Below the pieces are notes generated by a model, which searched no databases, was not told the DNA's origin, and saw only the letters and a list, made by a program, of their open reading frames with translations. The translations under genes and the position numbers were made by a program. Shown piece after piece: positions 2,796 through 38,116 of a stretch of DNA of 38,116 nt (position 1 is the first letter of the stretch; each line of letters starts with the position of its first letter). Source of the stretch: a virus (lineage: Duplodnaviria; Heunggongvirae; Uroviricota; Caudoviricetes); the IMG/VR virus record IMGVR_UViG_2802429226_000004, positions 1 to 38,116 of that record; one strand, given 5' to 3'.

Positions 2796-3818
2796 TTACT
2801 CGAATTCTGGACGCATATCGTTAAGCGTCATCATGAATTTTTGGTGATATTCATCACCGAGCTTTTCAGCCATGGTGTTAATCTCATTTTCAGCGCGCTT
2901 GAACATCGTTTTTGCATCTTCAGCAGATGGATCCAGGCTATTAAGTATCGCGATGATATATTCTCGAGCTTCTTCTCGTTCTGAATCTGAAATTGGCGAC
3001 AGGTGTTGACGCTCATCGTCAACTACGGAATATTCACCAGTGATAACAGCTGCGTTATCTTGGCTAAGTCCAGCTTCAGCGCGCTCATCCATAACAACAG
3101 CCTTCTGCATTTCAATAGAAACAGGAAGATATTTGAATAGTCGGCGAATTACTGTTTTTTTAGCCATCTCATCGAAGTGATCAACCCATGGGCCGCTGCT
3201 ACCGGCTTTGCTCAGTGCACGAACTTTCTCAATGTCTGCCCGGCTCATAACTTCAAATTGGACTCCGCCATCTTTCAGTCGTGCAACGGCGTAAACGTGC
3301 GTTAATTCTCCGCGGTCACCTGTTTCGCAAGGTAAATGCTCGAGCGTTTCTTCCAGGCCGTATGAGTAGCTGAATTTGTCGTTTGTATGTACGGTACGAG
3401 CCGAGATACTCAGGATCTGCCCAGAGCGGCGGGCAAGGTCAATCATTCCGCGATAGCCGATAATCAGCTGTGCTTCTGTAGATACGGTTTCCCATCTTCC
3501 ATTTACTTTCTGGCGTTTGTCGAACGGTATCAGGTAAGCGTGTCCAAGAGCTCCGCCTGGTTCAAGACCCAATTGGGCACATTGCATAATTGCCCCCAGG
3601 AAGCTGGCTTGGTCGCATGATGCAAGTTTTGGAACCTTTCGGATCTCTGTGGTTGCTATGCGCGCCAGACGGTCTGCTGTCATGTGCTTTGGAAGTGCCA
3701 AAGCCATCTGAGCTTTAATTTTTGGGTCTGCCAGAAGTCCGGCCAGAGTTGTTGGTTTCTCATTATGATGTGCAACTTGGTTACCGGTAGCCGCTGCCTT
3801 AAGTGCATTGATAGACAT
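2796..3818 (-). CDS. recT: RecT-family single-strand annealing protein
   Basis: 340 aa; central ...QCAQLGLEPGG..GHAYLIPF... region typical of RecT/Bet annealing proteins; immediately downstream of a YqaJ-type exonuclease gene. Confidence 0.8.
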   Translation of the reverse strand: MSINALKAAATGNQVAHHNEKPTTLAGLLADPKIKAQMALALPKHMTADRLARIATTEIRKVPKLASCDQASFLGAIMQCAQLGLEPGGALGHAYLIPFDKRQKVNGRWETVSTEAQLIIGYRGMIDLARRSGQILSISARTVHTNDKFSYSYGLEETLEHLPCETGDRGELTHVYAVARLKDGGVQFEVMSRADIEKVRALSKAGSSGPWVDHFDEMAKKTVIRRLFKYLPVSIEMQKAVVMDERAEAGLSQDNAAVITGEYSVVDDERQHLSPISDSEREEAREYIIAILNSLDPSAEDAKTMFKRAENEINTMAEKLGDEYHQKFMMTLNDMRPEFE

Positions 3819-8247: not shown

Positions 8248-8292
8248 CGTCTCAACAATTACCTATCAGGTAATAAAATATTCTAAACTCTA

Positions 8293-8682
8293 TTGATTTC
8301 GTGTCTTATGTGGTTTTTAATTACCTTAGAGGTAAATCATGAGAAAACAGATACAGGCTCTTGGTCGACTCAAAACAGGCCAGATGAACAAAACAGAATC
8401 TGCGTATTGCCAGCACCTTGGCTGCGTAAACGTGCAGGGGAAATCGCCTGGTATCGATTCGAGGGTATCAAGCTGCGGTTAGCTAATAACACGTTCTATA
8501 CGCCAGATTTCGCTGTGATGCTCGCCACCGGCGAGATGGAACTGCACGAAGTGAAAGGTTTCTGGACCGACGACGCCAGGGTGAAAACCAAAGTCGCCGC
8601 AGATCAGTATCCGTTCCGAATCATCGGGGTAACGGTTAAGCCAAAGAAAGCAGGTGGTGGCTGGAACATCGAAGAGTTCTGA
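8293..8682 (+). CDS. DUF1064-like phage protein; probable true start at ATG 8339 in a different frame (apparent frameshift)
   Basis: C-terminal LRKRAGEIAWYRFEGIKLRLANNTFYTPDFAVMLATGEMELHEVKG is DUF1064-like; the GAGG-ATG at 8339 opens MRKQIQALGRLKTGQMNKTESAY in the +1 frame relative to the rest of the gene. Confidence 0.5.
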   Translation: MISCLMWFLITLEVNHEKTDTGSWSTQNRPDEQNRICVLPAPWLRKRAGEIAWYRFEGIKLRLANNTFYTPDFAVMLATGEMELHEVKGFWTDDARVKTKVAADQYPFRIIGVTVKPKKAGGGWNIEEF

Positions 8683-15332: not shown

Positions 15333-15411
15333 CTTACCTGAAAGGTAATAATTAGTGCGTTAAATGTCAAGTATCTACGATAAATAAATCACATGTGGTT
15401 AAATTGGTAAT
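15333..15411 (+). promoter_or_regulatory. late-operon control region: operator-like 17-mer plus ACATGTGGTT-N5-GGTAAT element upstream of the portal operon
   Basis: CTTACCTGAAAGGTAAT at 15333-15349; ACATGTGGTT at 15391-15400; GGTAATAAT at 15406-15414. Confidence 0.4.
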
Positions 15412-15438
15412 AATTTAATTGCGTACGGAGTCATTGAT

Positions 15439-31612: not shown

Positions 31613-31909
31613 ATGCAAGCTATAGGATTCATTGTTTATATCGTCGTTGGTCTTTTTCAGTTGGCAGCAATTATGGCTGGGCTTGAATCATGGTGGGGAT
31701 TGCACTGGATAATTGCAGCCCCCATTGCTTTCATCGTGAGCTATATTCCATTTGTTGGAGCGATTGTTGGTATGGTTGGCGCTGTGGATGTATGGCGGTG
31801 GGAGTGGTGGCAGGCTGGCCTTCTCTTCTTTGGTGGGATCATCTTTGCTATTGTCTGCGGTGGAATGTCATCATTTTTCGAATGGCTATCATTCAGAAAA
31901 GGTACGTGA
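31613..31909 (+). CDS. small integral membrane protein (98 aa, Trp-rich)
   Basis: AGGTGA RBS; three hydrophobic segments (..IVYIVVGLFQLAAIMAGL.., ..IIAAPIAFIVSYIPFVGAIVGMVGAV.., ..LLFFGGIIFAIVCGG..); followed by palindrome and terminator. Confidence 0.55.
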   Translation: MQAIGFIVYIVVGLFQLAAIMAGLESWWGLHWIIAAPIAFIVSYIPFVGAIVGMVGAVDVWRWEWWQAGLLFFGGIIFAIVCGGMSSFFEWLSFRKGT

Positions 31910-31917
31910 CATGTCAC

Positions 31918-31944
31918 AGGCCGCTTTCGCGGCCTTTTCTTTAT
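31918..31944 (+). terminator. rho-independent terminator after the membrane protein genes
   Basis: AGGCCGC-TTTC-GCGGCCT hairpin followed by TTTCTTTAT. Confidence 0.65.
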
Positions 31945-32213
31945 GTGGTTTGTTTTCGTAATTGTTCGGCACAATAGTCGAGATGTGTTTGCAGATCCTG
32001 CATAGACATCTGTGAGCTGGTGACGTAGTTAATCAGTGCAGTCAGTTCGGCAAGTGGGCCATCGACATTAAATCCATCCTTATCGAGATCCCGGAGTAAT
32101 TTCATCAAGTGCGATCCCTCCACCAGTGACCTGACGCCTCCCGGCGTGTGAATCCTTTCGGTAAATCCGTCTTCCAGTGGATAGTGATACTGCTGCATCT
32201 TAATCTTCTCCAT
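31941..32213 (-). CDS. hypothetical protein (90 aa), reverse-strand moron
   Basis: Minus-strand ORF with its own upstream intergenic region; no family recognised. Confidence 0.5.
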   Translation of the reverse strand: MEKIKMQQYHYPLEDGFTERIHTPGGVRSLVEGSHLMKLLRDLDKDGFNVDGPLAELTALINYVTSSQMSMQDLQTHLDYCAEQLRKQTT

Positions 32214-32274
32214 GCAATAACTGTATATTTATACAGTAGCAAATAATTTGTTTGCTATCCAGCACGTTTTGCAA

Positions 32275-32341
32275 ATTACCTGAAAGGTAATATCTATTCA
32301 TATTCACAGTCTTTCTATCCATATGTGGTTTTTCAGGTAAT
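32275..32341 (+). promoter_or_regulatory. tailspike control region: operator-like 17-mer plus ATATGTGGTT-N5-GGTAAT element
   Basis: ATTACCTGAAAGGTAAT at 32275-32291; ATATGTGGTT at 32321-32330; GGTAAT at 32336-32341. Confidence 0.4.
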
Positions 32342-32394
32342 AGAATAACCAGATATGCGGCGCAACGGGTGCTGCGACTATCTGGAGATTTAAC

Positions 32395-34740
32395 ATGACG
32401 GTCTCAACCGAAGTTGACCACAACGAATACACCGGTAACGGCGTTACGACATCGTTTCCGTATACTTTTCGAATTTTCAGAAAATCAGACCTGGTTGTTC
32501 AGGTGTCTGACCTGAACGGGAACGTAACAGAATTGGTTCTGGATACCGGTTATACGGTAACTGGGGCGGGCACTTATAGTGGCGGTTCAGTGGTTCTGCC
32601 GTCTCCGCTTGCTGCTGGCTGGCGAATTACGATAGATCGTGTGCTTGATGTAGTGCAGGAGACAGATCTTCGCAATCAGGGAAAATTTTTCCCCGAAGTG
32701 CATGAAGATGCTTTGGACTACCTGACGATGCTGATCCAGCAATGTTTTGGGTGGTTCAGACGTGCATTGATGAAACCATCTTTGCTTGCAAAATATTACG
32801 ATGCAAAGCAAAACAGAATTTCTAACCTTGCAGATCCATCACTTGAGCAGGACGCTGTAAATAATCGCTCAATGCGTAATTATGTCGATGCTGCAATCGC
32901 CGGGGTTGTTGGTGGTTTTGGTTGGTTTATTCAGTATGGTTCTGGGGCAGTATACAGAACGTTCCAGGATAAAATGCGAGATAATTTTAGTGTTAAAGAT
33001 TTTGGGGCGAAAGGGGATGGGGTATATTCAGACTCTGATGCCATTAATGCCGCAGCATTAGCTGCTTTTAATAATGGTGGCGGGGGAATATTTTACCCTC
33101 CAGGTGTTTATTTAATAGATTCTCCTATCATTCTTTATACAGGCGTTCATCATAAAGGCTCTGGAAAGAGAGCAACATTTCTGTATGTTAAAAAAGGTAG
33201 TAATACAGATGTATTTAAAACACATGGCTTTGGCGTTGTGGAAAATCTGTCTGATGCGCCATATGGATTTAGCATAAAAGATATGACCATTGATGGTAAT
33301 TATCTTGACTTGCAAAGAGATACAAACTCATGGAGAACTTGCGACACTGTTAACAATGACTATGGAACTGCCATTAAAATATTCGGCAGCATGTACCACA
33401 TTGATGTTGAGATTAATAATGTTGCAGAACATGCTCTCTATTCAGAGGGGTATGGATCATTTCATGATAATCAGGAACACGCCTCTGAAGTGAGGATAAC
33501 GGGAAGAATTTCAGGGAGAGAGGGGGTTGTGTTCAGGGGGCCAGGTGATATTAACCTGGATTATATTGTTTTTGGCCTGTGTGGACTTCCTCCTTACAGC
33601 GCAAGATTAACAGCAACAAGCCAACAAAGCCTTCTTTATCCCGGAGAACCATGTCATGGAATTGTTCTTGATAATCAGTCTCCTTATACAGGACATGTCG
33701 ATATAAATTACATCCATGTATATGCCGTGTATTATGGCTATGGATTTAAGACGCTGGGTGTTAACCGATTCAATGCGAGGCACGTGTGTGTTGATAATAG
33801 TTTAGGTGGTTACTGGTTTACCAACGGGGCACATGGTGTTGTTGCCATCGCAGAAGCCAGGGCATGCGGAAGAATGCCAGATAACTACACTGGCGATTCA
33901 ATATCTCCTCTCCGCGACATGCTTCTGGATAACGGTACAATCTGGACACTTAACATCAATATAAAAGCACAAAGATATTCACCTTCAATTGATGATGATG
34001 GGTATCAGATAGCTATATCAGGCAACAACAATGTAGTTACAATAAACCAAATAGGTCAGTTACAGAGTGATAATACCCCTATTAAAGCCTCGTTTCTTTC
34101 TGTTACTGGTGACAATAACAATGTTACTTTTACATCCAAGAGGATAAAAGGAAATTTATGTTACTTATCTGGTGGCGGTAATAACATAAGAGGTACGTGT
34201 GATAATTTGTTCTCAGGTGCTGCTTTTATTCGCGACGCAACAAATTCAACAACAATTTGTTTTGCGAACAGTGTAGATATAACTGCGAAGGGGCTTTCTT
34301 CTGATTGTACTGGATTTAATAGTATTGGTACATGTGCATCAGAGAATATAAGGTTAATGATTTCTGGTGCTGTTGGATATACGAAGTTTACTGGCGATCG
34401 TATGGCTGCAATAAATCGAACTTGTGTTTGGATGGTAATGGCAACAATAGGAAATTCAATTAATGGTAAATCGACAGAGGATTATCTTGAGTGGGCTATG
34501 CCTACACCAACCGATGGTGATTTTCATGAGGTAGATATAGAACATAACTTCCTTTATGCTCCAACTTTAAATCAAATTTCATGGGCTTTCAGACAACCCG
34601 GTACTGAAGTTGTTGGTGCAACTATTGATTATATAAGACTCATTGGTGTTCCAACAGATACAACATTTAAAATCAGATATAAGTGGTCTGGTGCAGCCGC
34701 TTCTGGAAGCGCACCTATAGTAACGTTTCATATAAAATAA
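32395..34740 (+). CDS. tailspike protein with pectate-lyase-like beta-helix (probable polysaccharide depolymerase)
   Basis: 781 aa; N-terminal MTVSTEVDHNEYTGNGVTTSFPYTFRIF attachment domain; FSVKDFGAKGDGVYSDSDAINAAAL and repeated beta-helix-like segments; C-terminal two-thirds strongly AT-rich. Confidence 0.8.
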   Translation: MTVSTEVDHNEYTGNGVTTSFPYTFRIFRKSDLVVQVSDLNGNVTELVLDTGYTVTGAGTYSGGSVVLPSPLAAGWRITIDRVLDVVQETDLRNQGKFFPEVHEDALDYLTMLIQQCFGWFRRALMKPSLLAKYYDAKQNRISNLADPSLEQDAVNNRSMRNYVDAAIAGVVGGFGWFIQYGSGAVYRTFQDKMRDNFSVKDFGAKGDGVYSDSDAINAAALAAFNNGGGGIFYPPGVYLIDSPIILYTGVHHKGSGKRATFLYVKKGSNTDVFKTHGFGVVENLSDAPYGFSIKDMTIDGNYLDLQRDTNSWRTCDTVNNDYGTAIKIFGSMYHIDVEINNVAEHALYSEGYGSFHDNQEHASEVRITGRISGREGVVFRGPGDINLDYIVFGLCGLPPYSARLTATSQQSLLYPGEPCHGIVLDNQSPYTGHVDINYIHVYAVYYGYGFKTLGVNRFNARHVCVDNSLGGYWFTNGAHGVVAIAEARACGRMPDNYTGDSISPLRDMLLDNGTIWTLNINIKAQRYSPSIDDDGYQIAISGNNNVVTINQIGQLQSDNTPIKASFLSVTGDNNNVTFTSKRIKGNLCYLSGGGNNIRGTCDNLFSGAAFIRDATNSTTICFANSVDITAKGLSSDCTGFNSIGTCASENIRLMISGAVGYTKFTGDRMAAINRTCVWMVMATIGNSINGKSTEDYLEWAMPTPTDGDFHEVDIEHNFLYAPTLNQISWAFRQPGTEVVGATIDYIRLIGVPTDTTFKIRYKWSGAAASGSAPIVTFHIK

Positions 34741-34776
34741 ACAATTTATTAATTAGTTTTTAATTATATAGAAGGC

Positions 34777-34815
34777 ATCAGTCCCAATAAAATGGGGCTG
34801 ATTACTTTTCATTGT
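34777..34815 (+). terminator. putative rho-independent terminator after the tailspike gene
   Basis: CAGTCCC-AATAAAAT-GGGGCTG imperfect hairpin followed by a T-rich tract. Confidence 0.4.
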
Positions 34816-34957
34816 TTTCATAAAAAGGTAAAAAAATTAAATATTATTATTTGTTTGAACCTGGTTATAGAAGTAATTATTTTAAGGTAACATTAAACCT
34901 TATGTGGTTTGTTGTGTATGATAGTCTGTAAGTGAAGAGGTTCGATATGTACAGAAA

Positions 34958-35371
34958 ATGGTGTGTGCTATGTCAGTTCAAATAACATCAGAGTCTTTAA
35001 ATCAATGGCTTAGTGCTAGTTCTCTGGTTGCAGTGATAGCAGGAGTTCCTCCTGAGGTTGCTTTAGGTGCCTTAGCTGGTGCGGTAATCTTTGTTACCTC
35101 TGCTGTCGAGTATCCGATCCGCCGCCGAGTGCTCCTCTCTATGCTCAGCTTTCTTTGCGGCCTTCTCTTTTACAAACCTGCAGCATCAATTCTTATCGGA
35201 ATAGCCAGTCTGATCCCTACCATCACGAAGGAGTCTTTTGAGAAAGGGATTGTTTTCTCTGCTGGCGCATTCGTGTCAGCAATTGTCGCTGTGCGTATTG
35301 GTATATGGCTCTATCACCGTTCCGATAATCCACGCGAGTTAATTCCGGGGAGAAAAGGCGATGGTAACTAA
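34958..35371 (+). CDS. holin-like membrane protein (start uncertain; 34970 is an alternative)
   Basis: 137 aa with several hydrophobic helices; first gene of the cassette ending in endolysin and spanins. Confidence 0.5.
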   Translation: MVCAMSVQITSESLNQWLSASSLVAVIAGVPPEVALGALAGAVIFVTSAVEYPIRRRVLLSMLSFLCGLLFYKPAASILIGIASLIPTITKESFEKGIVFSAGAFVSAIVAVRIGIWLYHRSDNPRELIPGRKGDGN

Positions 35372-35669
35372 TGAGCTTGTTTTGCTTATCACCAATGCAC
35401 TTATTTGTACTGGCATAGCAATTCGTGTTGTCACATTCCGGCGTAACGGTTCACAACACCGAAGATGGGGAGGGTGGCTTGCTTATTTCCTTATTGTTGC
35501 TGCGGCCAGTATTCCTGTTCGTGTCGTCTATGCAATCTGGTTACGCACGCCAATGGCTGTGGATTTATCAGAGGTCATTATCAACGCTGTCATGCTTGCT
35601 GCGGTTCTTAAAACTCGCGGTAACGTCGTTCAGATTTTCAAAATAACGAGGTCTAAACATGGAGATTAA
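35361..35669 (+). CDS. second holin/antiholin-like membrane protein
   Basis: 102 aa, three hydrophobic segments, overlaps both neighbours; directly upstream of the endolysin gene. Confidence 0.5.
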
Positions 35670-36288
35670 ACAATTCCAGCGAGCTGCTGGTATTAGCGAT
35701 GCGCTGGCCGCACGCTGGTTCTCGCATATAACTTCTGCGATGAAAGAGTTTGGTATCAGCAAACCAGAAGATCAGGCAATGTTTATTGCTCAGGTCGGGC
35801 ATGAGTCTGGAGGCTTCACCCGGTTGCAGGAAAATTTCAACTACAGCGTCAGCGGACTGGCTAATTTCGTTCGGGCTGGGCGTCTCACTCAGGGACAGGC
35901 CAACGCATTGGGGCGCCGTGCTGGTGAACCACCATTGCCACTTGAGCGCCAGAGAGCGATCGCCAATCTGGTGTACAGCAAACGCATGGGTAACAATGCC
36001 CCAGGTGATGGCTGGAATTACCGTGGGCGCGGGCTTATCCAGATTACCGGTTTGAATAACTATCGTGACTGTGGAAACGGTCTGAAAGTTGACCTGCTGG
36101 ATAGTCCTGAACTGCTGGCGCAGGACGAATACGCGGCTCGTAGCGCGGCGTGGTTTTTTGCCAGCAAAGGCTGCATGAAGTATACCGGTGATATTGCACG
36201 TGTAACTCTGATTATCAATGGTGGCCGGAACGGCATCGACGACCGGCGCGCGCGGTACGTTACTGCCAGTAAGGTGCTGGTCGTATGA
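35659..36288 (+). CDS. endolysin, glycoside hydrolase family 19 (chitinase-like) type
   Basis: 209 aa; ...[12 protein letters not shown]... and ...[16 protein letters not shown]... match GH19-type phage endolysin signatures as recalled. Confidence 0.85.
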
Positions 36289-36767
36289 TCTGGGCATTCG
36301 TAAAAGCATACTGGAAACAGTTGATTATCATGGCGGTGCTTGCTGTTCTGGTCATATCAGGAGTTGTTGCCTGGAATGTGCACGGCAGTCGTCAGTACGA
36401 CGCCGGGTATGCACAGGCGAAAGAAGACCGCAAAACCGAAGATGAGAGAGTTCGTCAGCACTACGAACAGGAGAAATCGATCAATGAACGTGAAGCGCAG
36501 CAGAGGATCGACCAGGCGCGCAATGATGCTCTTGATGCTGCCGCTCGCGCTGGCCGGTTGCAGCAACAGCTCGTTGCCATCCGTGAGCAGCTCAGGCAGT
36601 ATAACGCCATTGTCGGCGCTGGGACGTCAGCCGCAGACACCGGAGTTTTGCTTGCCGACGTGCTCAGTAAATCTCTCGAGAGAAACAGACAACTGGCAGA
36701 GTATGCTGACCGGGCAGCCGAAGCCGGAAGAGTCTGTGAAAAACAGTACGACACCCTGACCAGATAG
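36285..36767 (+). CDS. i-spanin (Rz-like)
   Basis: 160 aa; N-terminal TM helix ([18 protein letters not shown]) followed by charged coiled-coil periplasmic domain; ATGA overlap with the endolysin gene. Confidence 0.7.
36484..36759 (+). CDS. o-spanin (Rz1-like lipoprotein) embedded in the +1 frame of the i-spanin gene
   Basis: 91 aa from ATG 36484: [26 protein letters not shown], a lipoprotein signal with LAGC lipobox, then Ser/Pro-rich mature region; AGGAG 10 nt upstream. Confidence 0.6.
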   Translation: MNVKRSRGSTRRAMMLLMLPLALAGCSNSSLPSVSSSGSITPLSALGRQPQTPEFCLPTCSVNLSRETDNWQSMLTGQPKPEESVKNSTTP

Positions 36768-37042: not shown

Positions 37043-37585
37043 TTAATTAAACCAACTGTCTGATTTATTCTCTTCTGCTTTACCCACGCTTTTCATCAAA
37101 TCACGACCACCTTCAGTCATATTCCTGTTAGCGTCAGCTTCAGATTGTACAACATCGGTTTGCGCTGCTTTGTGTTTCAGTTCCTGATCGATAAATTCGT
37201 TCTCACGCTTAACGCGCGCTTCTTCTTTTGCCAGCGCCAGTTTTTGCTTCTGAATCTCTAAGTTGCGCAGCTCATCTTCATAACTTTGATCGCGCTTTTT
37301 ATCCGCAGTGAATTCGGCGTCCCGTTTATCCTGGCGAGCTTTTTTATCCGCTGCTGCTGCTGCCGCTCTTTTATTCGCTGCGGCCTGAGCGTTTGCGCGC
37401 CGTTGCTTCTCTTGCTGGATTTCCCTGTTGCGCTCCGCAACCCATTCGTCATGCTGCCTTTGTTCTTCATTTTTGCCTTGCTGTTCAGCTTCTGCGACCG
37501 CAGAGAGTTGATCCTGTAATGAAGAGGCGAAAGCCGGGCTACTAACAGCAGCTAATATGGCGGCGCAAAGAAAAACTTTCTTCAT
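37043..37585 (-). CDS. secreted coiled-coil periplasmic protein, host-like (possibly YfgI-like)
   Basis: 180 aa; signal peptide MKKVFLCAAILAAVSSPAFA; highly charged Lys/Glu/Ala/Gln-rich helical body; GGAGGA RBS. Confidence 0.55.
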   Translation of the reverse strand: MKKVFLCAAILAAVSSPAFASSLQDQLSAVAEAEQQGKNEEQRQHDEWVAERNREIQQEKQRRANAQAAANKRAAAAAADKKARQDKRDAEFTADKKRDQSYEDELRNLEIQKQKLALAKEEARVKRENEFIDQELKHKAAQTDVVQSEADANRNMTEGGRDLMKSVGKAEENKSDSWFN

Positions 37586-37600
37586 GAGTCCTCCTGATAG

Positions 37601-38116
37601 TTAGCTCTTTTCAGGACATTTTGTATTTGGCTGAATACGCGTTTCGTTATAAGTGGTGGTAATAACAACGGCTAAACCCGTTGTGAACTGGCATTCTTTA
37701 CCCACCTGGGTGGAGGTGTACACTTTGGTGCCTTCCTTATAAGTTAAAGAGACACCTTCCACTAAGGTTTTATCATTCACCATAGTACCCGCTGCCGCGC
37801 CTACAGCTCCGCCACCAACTGCACCAGCCGTTGTTCCGGAGTTACTACCAGATCCAACGTTATGGCCGATAACGCCGCCTGCGACAGCGCCAATAAGTGC
37901 GCCAAAGGCTTGCGCATTCCGTTTATTTTGTGAGTTATCTACGGCAACTTTTGCGGGAAGAATGGAGATAATATTAACGGTTTTAGTTTCTTGCTTTGTA
38001 TTCAGTTGATCGGTTTGATAGACATCGGCGGCATGGTCGTCAGCATTTGACTGGCATCCTGCCAGGGTGAATGACGCTAAAATTGCCACAGGCAGAAAAC
38101 ATTTTTTAAATTTCAT
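37601..38116 (-). CDS. glycine-zipper outer-membrane lipoprotein, host-like (possibly YfgH-like); start codon at window edge
   Basis: 171 aa; lipoprotein signal with LAGC lipobox; Gly-zipper GALIGAVAGGVIGHNVGSG...GAVGGGAVGAAAG. Confidence 0.55.
   Translation of the reverse strand: MKFKKCFLPVAILASFTLAGCQSNADDHAADVYQTDQLNTKQETKTVNIISILPAKVAVDNSQNKRNAQAFGALIGAVAGGVIGHNVGSGSNSGTTAGAVGGGAVGAAAGTMVNDKTLVEGVSLTYKEGTKVYTSTQVGKECQFTTGLAVVITTTYNETRIQPNTKCPEKS

Follow-up and report, generated by a model that had tools for sequence, protein, structure and literature searches.

A modular tailspike gene in a Uetakevirus-type Escherichia prophage shares near-identical receptor-domain DNA with P22-like prophages

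How do an attachment module and a receptor-binding module of different origin come to lie in one tailspike gene, and what does the resulting spike recognize? This question is raised by an open reading frame (ORF) in IMG/VR record IMGVR_UViG_2802429226_000004, of which positions 1 to 38,116 were analyzed here (the window, 38,116 nucleotides (nt)). The window covers nearly all of a phiV10/epsilon15-type prophage (genus Uetakevirus), that of a temperate podovirus, in an Escherichia chromosome. An earlier note, made from the sequence alone, had described the ORF as a modular tailspike in which an AT-rich, depolymerase-like beta-helix had been brought in by horizontal replacement behind a conserved attachment domain, the block reaching from 32395 to 34909 and being flanked by two copies of a 14-mer. 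The ORF is indeed as given there, whereas the block as delimited extends beyond the end of the gene at 34740 and also covers an AT-rich spacer and part of the second 14-mer. We estimate at roughly 85% the probability that this ORF is a modular mosaic whose product is the sole tailspike (receptor-binding protein) of a temperate podovirus of the phiV10/epsilon15 kind. The gene is divided as follows:

32395 to 34740, plus strand: tailspike ORF, ATG start, 781 amino acids (aa)
32395 to 32889, plus strand: anchor module, codons 1-165, with a beta-sandwich (residues 9-82) and a predicted helical neck
32890 to 33027, plus strand: linker and first rung, codons 166-211, ending in the DFGAKGDG motif, at which crossovers map
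33028 to 34368, plus strand: beta-helix core, codons 212-658, the receptor-binding and putative catalytic part, with a guanine-plus-cytosine (GC) content of 0.395 and a third-position GC content (GC3) of 0.295
34369 to 34740, plus strand: C-terminal beta-rich domain, codons 659-781 and stop, with a separate history

The modular reading is supported by domain, fold, and comparative evidence, the strongest item being near-identical DNA over 33028-34010 in a tailspike gene with an unrelated N-terminus. That gene belongs to a P22-like (Lederbergvirus) E. coli prophage and encodes a 724-aa protein (P0002, 148 member sequences, named 'phage tailspike protein' in RefSeq); homologs of gp7, gp20, and gp16 as well as an Arc/Mnt gene lie upstream. 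Its N-terminus is PF09008, the P22 head-binding domain, which is unrelated to the Uetake anchor and was not found in the window tailspike, whose N-terminus is therefore not of the P22 type. Between 33028 and 34010, the two loci differ at 9 positions in 983 nt, and the onset of this similarity at 33028 is sharp. Identities to the P22-like protein (P0002) and locus (L004) change along the gene:

Residues 1-209 (32395-33021): aa identity 10-21%; DNA identity about 0.4 up to 33018
Residues 212-560 (33028-34074): aa identity 99%; DNA identity 99-100% over 33028-34010
Residues 561-658 (34075-34368): aa identity 92%; DNA identity 90-96% up to 34368
Residues 659-781 (34369-34737): aa identity 63%; DNA identity 59-74% to the stop

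No DNA similarity to the P22-like locus was found after the tailspike stop, nor anywhere else outside the gene. An assembly artefact is unlikely to be behind this identity, since 10 independent complete genomes contain the P22-like gene.

The other side of the junction was located with a collection of 5426 complete E. coli genomes, used for all counts of flanks and receptor domains. The flanks of the tailspike gene were matched at 90-99% identity in 553 of them, and the whole gene in one alone (NR379, 98.3%). Homology to the other flank-matching genomes ends at 32518-33020 and restarts at about 34893 or at 34970, and the genes that these genomes carry on the same anchor go by various annotations (endosialidase, tail fiber domain, head-binding, or GH28-related). 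Anchor and linker are shared with the closest relatives up to a boundary near codon 209, the linker being 96-97% identical in DNA to Uetake-like relatives with other PF12708-type receptor domains. In two loci of that kind (L002 and L003), homology to the window ends at 33020-33023, and homology to the P22-like locus starts at 33028; the crossover therefore lies within the first-rung codons for DFGAKGDG (33021-33028). Homologs of residues 201-781 bear PF09008, PF18668, or PF03906 N-termini, and some are found in Pseudomonas and Paenibacillus genomes. We suggest that unrelated groups of temperate phages share a circulating stock of receptor-domain modules, which become fused to anchors specific to each genus, and that the joining would proceed by homologous recombination at short conserved stretches, in this case the DFGAKGDG codons of the first helix rung (33004-33028).

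The attachment domain of about 150 codons proposed earlier is a correct description of the genus-wide anchor. Residues 1-165 are 68% identical to phiV10 gp25 (E 5e-66), and no significant similarity to gp25 was detected beyond residue 165. In PHROG, numerous tail spike and tail fiber families have matches that cover residues 1-166 or extend as far as 1-226, and the anchor matches the N-terminus of the Dpo31/Carin-1 tail fibre in a sequence search of the PDB (E 4e-30). At the DNA level, identity is 94% to phiV10 over 31905-32518 and about 75% to epsilon15-type Salmonella phages over 31906-32742. An AlphaFold2 monomer model, built on 51 sequences (mean predicted local distance difference test (pLDDT) score of 86), gives a pLDDT of about 90 to the beta-sandwich of residues 9-82 and below 50 to the helices of residues 90-194, which probably form a neck whose folding requires the trimer. 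Residues 1-165 would fix the spike, presumably trimeric, to the tail hub. When the anchor alone was used as a protein query, the homologs were mostly 'partial' proteins (P0032-P0151; 150-360 aa), cut off where a contig stops, and C-terminal partners were for this reason counted in annotated complete genomes. Draft assemblies seem to break often in these tailspike genes, probably as the anchor repeats among co-resident prophages.

Of the proposed horizontal replacement, the exchange itself is borne out by near-identical DNA on an unrelated anchor, while its direction may have been out of this lineage and not into it. A full-length ortholog of 780 aa in a Uetake-like prophage of Atlantibacter hermannii (P0003) is evenly 67-81% identical to the window protein across all segments (81% over residues 659-781); the P22-like gene, unlike this ortholog, is a mosaic relative to the window gene. 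For these two reasons, it seems more likely that anchor and receptor domain have long been joined in the Uetake lineage and that residues 212 to about 658 passed recently from there into a related P22-type gene.

Base composition gives a second view of the same junction. The GC content drops from 0.457 (GC3 0.417) in codons 1-211 to 0.393 (GC3 0.277) in codons 212-781 (chi-square, p = 0.006 for GC and p = 0.0003 for GC3), compared with 0.509 (GC3 0.498) in nine backbone genes. The marked AT-richness reported from about 33000 onward is thus confirmed, and a uniform composition is ruled out. The 1710-bp stretch of minimum GC in the window begins at 33261, inside the tailspike gene, and only 2.3% of all 1710-bp stretches in the window have a GC content as low as that of the C-terminal module. 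The single GC change point that fits best lies near 32766 and is broad; the homology breakpoints (33008-33028) are sharper. Other E. coli Uetake-like tailspikes combine this anchor with alternative receptor domains that have a GC content of 0.36-0.42 and a GC3 of 0.26-0.32, so that low GC marks a circulating pool of receptor-domain modules and not a recent event at this locus. AT-richness as proof of a recent import into the tailspike gene was accordingly ruled out, all sister receptor domains being equally AT-rich. The gene looks functional, since it differs from that of NR379 by 33 synonymous and 13 non-synonymous codons, a pattern of purifying selection.

What, then, does the receptor domain do? 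The domain search agreed with the pectate-lyase-like motifs seen earlier, placing PF12708 at residues 198-314 (E 3e-13, 50.5 bits against a curated cut-off of 27). In the AlphaFold2 model, the C-terminal part forms a right-handed parallel beta-helix, with rungs from residue 197 onward (pLDDT mostly above 90) that finish in a beta-rich C-terminal domain whose strands have a pLDDT of about 90-96. Among the closest structurally characterized beta-helix enzymes are the A-module of the mannuronan C5-epimerase AlgE4, phi29 gp12, CBA120 TSP2, and the Sf6 and HK620 tailspikes; identity to these is just 10-18%, a level at which catalytic residues are not transferable. Outside the anchor, PDB sequence matches are confined to the first helix rungs, residues 185-314 (AlgE, PfbA, Sf6). 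Membership in GH28, which the RefSeq name 'GH28-related' implies, was rejected, as PF00295 gave no match at E <= 0.01; the NCBIfam rhamnogalacturonidase model matched 44 residues with 33.8 bits against a cut-off of 500. Among 28 receptor-domain homologs with identities down to 31%, E351, E376, D385, and D426 are invariant, which makes them candidate catalytic residues.

On this basis, the beta-helix of residues 197 to about 658 would bind a host surface polysaccharide and most likely cleave it, so that the virion reaches the outer membrane; the C-terminal domain (residues 659-781) would probably serve folding or trimerisation, or extra binding. Cleavage would be hydrolytic, of the endoglycosidase type, and would use conserved acidic residues. 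A beta-helix that merely binds its substrate, or modifies it as an esterase or deacetylase without cutting the chain, would explain why catalytic residues are not assignable by homology. Some structural neighbours are in fact adhesins (PfbA, Vag8) or epimerases, and a preprint on the epsilon15 tailspike reports an esterase domain. Such a role is nevertheless improbable for the window protein, given the four acidic residues that stay invariant in such distant homologs and the predominance of active tailspike glycosidases or lyases among the structural neighbours; moreover, no SGNH or esterase domain was detected in the domain search of the tailspike.

The distribution of the receptor domain suggests a substrate for the putative cleavage. 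Its DNA was found in 11 of the 5426 genomes, namely NR379, where the context is that of a Uetake-like prophage, and ten with the P22-type gene. An O25 cluster is present in 9 of the 10 carriers checked (background for the O25b cluster, 425/5426), and wzx is annotated as 'O25 family O-antigen flippase' in the intact O25 clusters of carriers. Over 5.7 kb, the O25b cluster of NR379 shows 100% identity with its counterparts in EC958, JJ1886, and further O25b:H4 strains of sequence type 131 (ST131). In single-spike Uetake- and Lederbergvirus prophages, the receptor domain matches the host serogroup (PMC10408124). Because the carriers are mostly O25 and this rule has been published, the O25b O-antigen of ST131-type E. 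coli is our best guess for the receptor and the likeliest substrate; we place this specificity a little short of even odds. Literature searches for a prophage tailspike directed at O25b returned nothing directly applicable.

Several points weigh against cleavage of the O25b O-antigen. One carrier of the P22-type copy, EC32 (L014, NZ_CP085619.1 1894852-1905318), has an O16 cluster; either its O-antigen was switched after the prophage had come in, or the specificity of the spike for O25b is not strict. The O25b cluster of NR379 itself (L009, NZ_AP040229.1 781950-788350), compared with that of GN04171 (L010), is missing wzx, the rml genes rfbC, rfbA, rfbD, and rfbB, and part of a GT2 gene, so the presumed receptor may have been lost from this lysogen. 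(In NR379, galF has beside it a fragment of a GDP-mannose dehydratase gene.) The ten P22-like prophages occupy the same relative chromosomal position, and those of the carriers that are identifiable by name are ST131; the association with O25b is therefore confounded by clonality. As for the activity, the searches found no characterized enzyme close in sequence to the receptor domain, and a PDB search with the whole protein found no close solved relative of it. A tblastn search of 50,697 phage records gave 7 weak matches of at most 32% identity, the domain as such not being in that collection. The best matches in sequenced phages are 28-30% identical (30% for the best) and are annotated 'hypothetical protein' and 'Endo-alpha-sialidase'. 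The sole functional label nearby is that of phrog_8280, 'colanic acid degradation', an untested annotation that names another substrate; the match is extensive (E 6.5e-95, residues 181-780 against positions 133-631 of a 632-position profile) and denotes homology at the family level only. Literature searches did not find the source of this label.

The label does keep colanic acid as a rival target. The receptor domain would then belong to a colanidase- or lyase-type depolymerase directed at colanic acid or a capsule, and the link to O25b would be a clonal by-product within ST131. We regard this as rather unlikely. The sequenced phage members are just 28-30% identical to the window protein, a level at which the substrate is not conserved. 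In addition, colanic acid is near-universal, and a module directed at it would not be expected in so few genomes. The single-spike Uetake- and Lederbergvirus prophages characterized so far are also O-antigen specific, with receptor domains that track the serogroup (PMC10408124). Returning to the O25b O-antigen as the preferred target, we tentatively propose, as a possibility somewhat short of probable, that the receptor domain is an undescribed O25b/ST131-specific subtype that was exchanged very recently (99-100% DNA identity) between a Uetakevirus-like and a P22-like prophage through a crossover in the DFGAKGDG codons.

Do the flanking 14-mers delimit a cassette? The 14-mer TTATGTGGTTTGTT is found exactly twice in the window, at 31941 (copy A) and 34900 (copy C), both on the plus strand (0.01 expected). 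The two copies are real and flank the gene; they are not the limits of the exchanged segment, the left end of which lies inside the gene (about 33021-33028), and as cassette boundaries they were largely rejected. Three neighbouring elements bear on their role:

34900 to 34922, plus strand: promoter-like element consisting of copy C (34900-34913) and then TATGAT (34917-34922), at the left edge of the lysis module
32322 to 32346, plus strand: promoter-like element upstream of the tailspike, TATGTGGTT with TAGAAT 10 nt later (degenerate copy B)
32276 to 32290: palindrome TTACCTGAAAGGTAA, a putative operator in the divergent intergenic region

Copy A (31941-31954) coincides with the stop and last four codons of a minus-strand 85-aa gene and immediately follows a terminator hairpin (31918-31935). 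Relatives have an insertion of about 2 kb precisely at 31941-31943 (L002 2043-3999, L003 2043-4235), a minus-strand moron cassette with genes for a BRO-N antirepressor, a YafO-family toxin, and DUF4760 or DUF2335 proteins, along with small ORFs. It is cleanly absent from the window and from NR379, where the 85/90-aa gene alone is left. The last codons of the 85-aa gene differ by junction type in relatives (TTATCTGG, TTACCGGG, or TTATGTGG). The element of copy C lies 48-70 bp upstream of the holin ATG (34970), and a variant of it (AACC-nnAnrTGGTTTrTy-GTGTATrAT) was found upstream of the holin gene in every relative inspected; homology to the window starts at 34879-34898 in most of 310 E. coli genomes. 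Copy B (ATATGTGGTTTTTC, at 32321) lies 74 bp upstream of the tailspike ATG and is kept in phiV10, the Atlantibacter prophage, and the E. coli relatives, and this element may be a promoter.

If the copies of TTATGTGGTTTGTT were instead crossover or attachment sites, a mobile cassette at 31941-34913, comprising the 85-aa gene, the tailspike, and the spacer, would move as a unit. Direct repeats identical at 14/14 positions are in keeping with this, as is the location of both copies at mosaic junctions (the moron indel at 31941-31943 and the restart of homology at 34879-34898); furthermore, when the 5 bases upstream of it are included, copy C agrees at 18/19 positions with the sequence around copy A in relatives. 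We nonetheless consider such a cassette very improbable. Since 31941-33020 is 96-97% identical to relatives with other receptor domains, what is exchanged begins within the gene instead of at copy A. Copy C is one variant of a holin-proximal element that is conserved in all relatives, those with a different copy A included. The repeat does not extend beyond 14 nt, and no recombinase gene is associated with it. The core TATGTGGWT also recurs elsewhere: it is found five times in the window (8307, 8721, 31942, 32322, and 34901), always on the plus strand and, except at copy A, upstream of genes (0.59 expected; five copies were reached in 0/100 shuffles). The copies at 32322 and 34901 have a -10-like hexamer 7-10 nt downstream and are conserved in distant relatives, and the pattern TGGTTT-N6-10-TADRAT is found in the window at copies B and C only (0.08 expected). 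A similar sequence, CATGTGGTTAAATTGGTAATAAT, lies near 15392. The simplest reading is that the 14-mers are a recurrent promoter-like or regulatory motif and that their exact identity over 14 positions is partly a coincidence of variable flanking positions. TATGTGGWT may be a late-promoter or activator site of the phage genus. The 14-mer may also provide a short homology patch for module shuffling, although nothing requires such a role.

The palindrome TTACCT-N3-AGGTAA is found seven times in the window at <=1 mismatch (5198, 5260, 5972, 8259, 8321, 15334, and 32276; 0.10 expected) and probably serves as an operator for a phage repressor or regulator. Three of the copies (8259, 15334, and 32276) precede the motif (T/C)ATGTGGTT by about 30-45 nt, so that three regulatory regions share one layout, the 32276 region being paralogous to 8259-8340 and 15334-15420. 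TATGTGGWT and the palindrome may together define an uncharacterized regulatory circuit of the phage genus. The position beside the tailspike is reminiscent of the immI region of P22.

The remaining features of the window fit the assignment to Uetakevirus:

1 to 1251: integrase gene, within or at which the window starts
2796 to 3818, minus strand: RecT gene
31941 to 32213, minus strand: gene of 85-90 aa, divergent from the tailspike, homolog of epsilon15 gp19 and phiV10 gp24, with annotated homologs in relatives
34741 to 34957: AT-rich spacer of 217 bp, GC 0.258, with a terminator-like hairpin at 34777-34802 and no ORF
34958 to 36767: lysis cassette of two holins, a GH19 endolysin, and an Rz-like spanin
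37043 to 38116: host genes yfgI and yfgH, as annotated in the near-identical NR379 locus

By comparison with annotated relatives, the genes follow the Uetakevirus order, in which those for an 824-aa virion protein and a small membrane protein (98 aa) precede the minus-strand 85-90-aa gene and the tailspike gene, with two holins, the GH19 endolysin, and Rz after them. The product of the 85-90-aa gene matches phrog_450 (E 5e-48) and, weakly, the C-terminus of an anti-repressor family. The right junction between prophage and host was placed between 36768 and 37042. An ORF at 36340-36759, nested in the +1 frame inside the Rz gene (36285-36767), encodes a lipobox-like LALAGC followed by a proline-rich tail, the features expected of an Rz1-type outer-membrane spanin, and phiV10 is annotated likewise. 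The spacer after the tailspike has no similarity to relatives except NR379 up to about 34879-34898. In phiV10, this slot is occupied by oac, an O-acetyltransferase gene that alters the host O-antigen and confers superinfection immunity; the window prophage is without such a gene there.

Exchange of receptor domains across genera is a textbook feature of temperate enterobacterial podoviruses, and conceptually nothing here is new. Tailspike modularity is likewise known for P22, Sf6, and HK620 and for Det7 and 9NA. The sole lead of wider value is the possible O25b/ST131 specificity. The module of residues 212 to 781 (approximate start) is well delimited, rare in sequenced E. coli, and found almost only in O25b (ST131-type) hosts, and could be considered as an ST131-directed binding or depolymerase reagent; were the specificity true, it would be a ready targeting module for ST131-specific tailocins, diagnostics, and engineered phages. 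The near-identical copy behind a P22-type anchor, a clean example from nature, also indicates a place at which such chimeras can be joined.

New here is a receptor-domain subtype that is neither in PMC10408124 (Virol J 2023), where the O25 subtype has 0 mentions, nor in the phage collection searched. That study described the modularity of anchor and receptor domain and their exchange between Uetake- and Lederbergviruses, and its limit for the phiV10 anchor, the first 205 aa, agrees with the junction at residues 205-211 of the window protein. It reported no conserved recombination motifs in Uetake- and Lederbergvirus prophages, whereas the crossover in the window maps to the DFGAKGDG codons. 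The tailspikes phiV10 gp25 and epsilon15 gp20 occupy the same genomic slot as the window tailspike, with the same N-terminal anchor and the same neighbour genes, but their receptor-binding part is unrelated to it. The reverse holds for the tailspikes of P22-like prophages in O25b:H4 ST131-type E. coli, in which a near-identical receptor domain follows a PF09008 N-terminus instead of the Uetake anchor.

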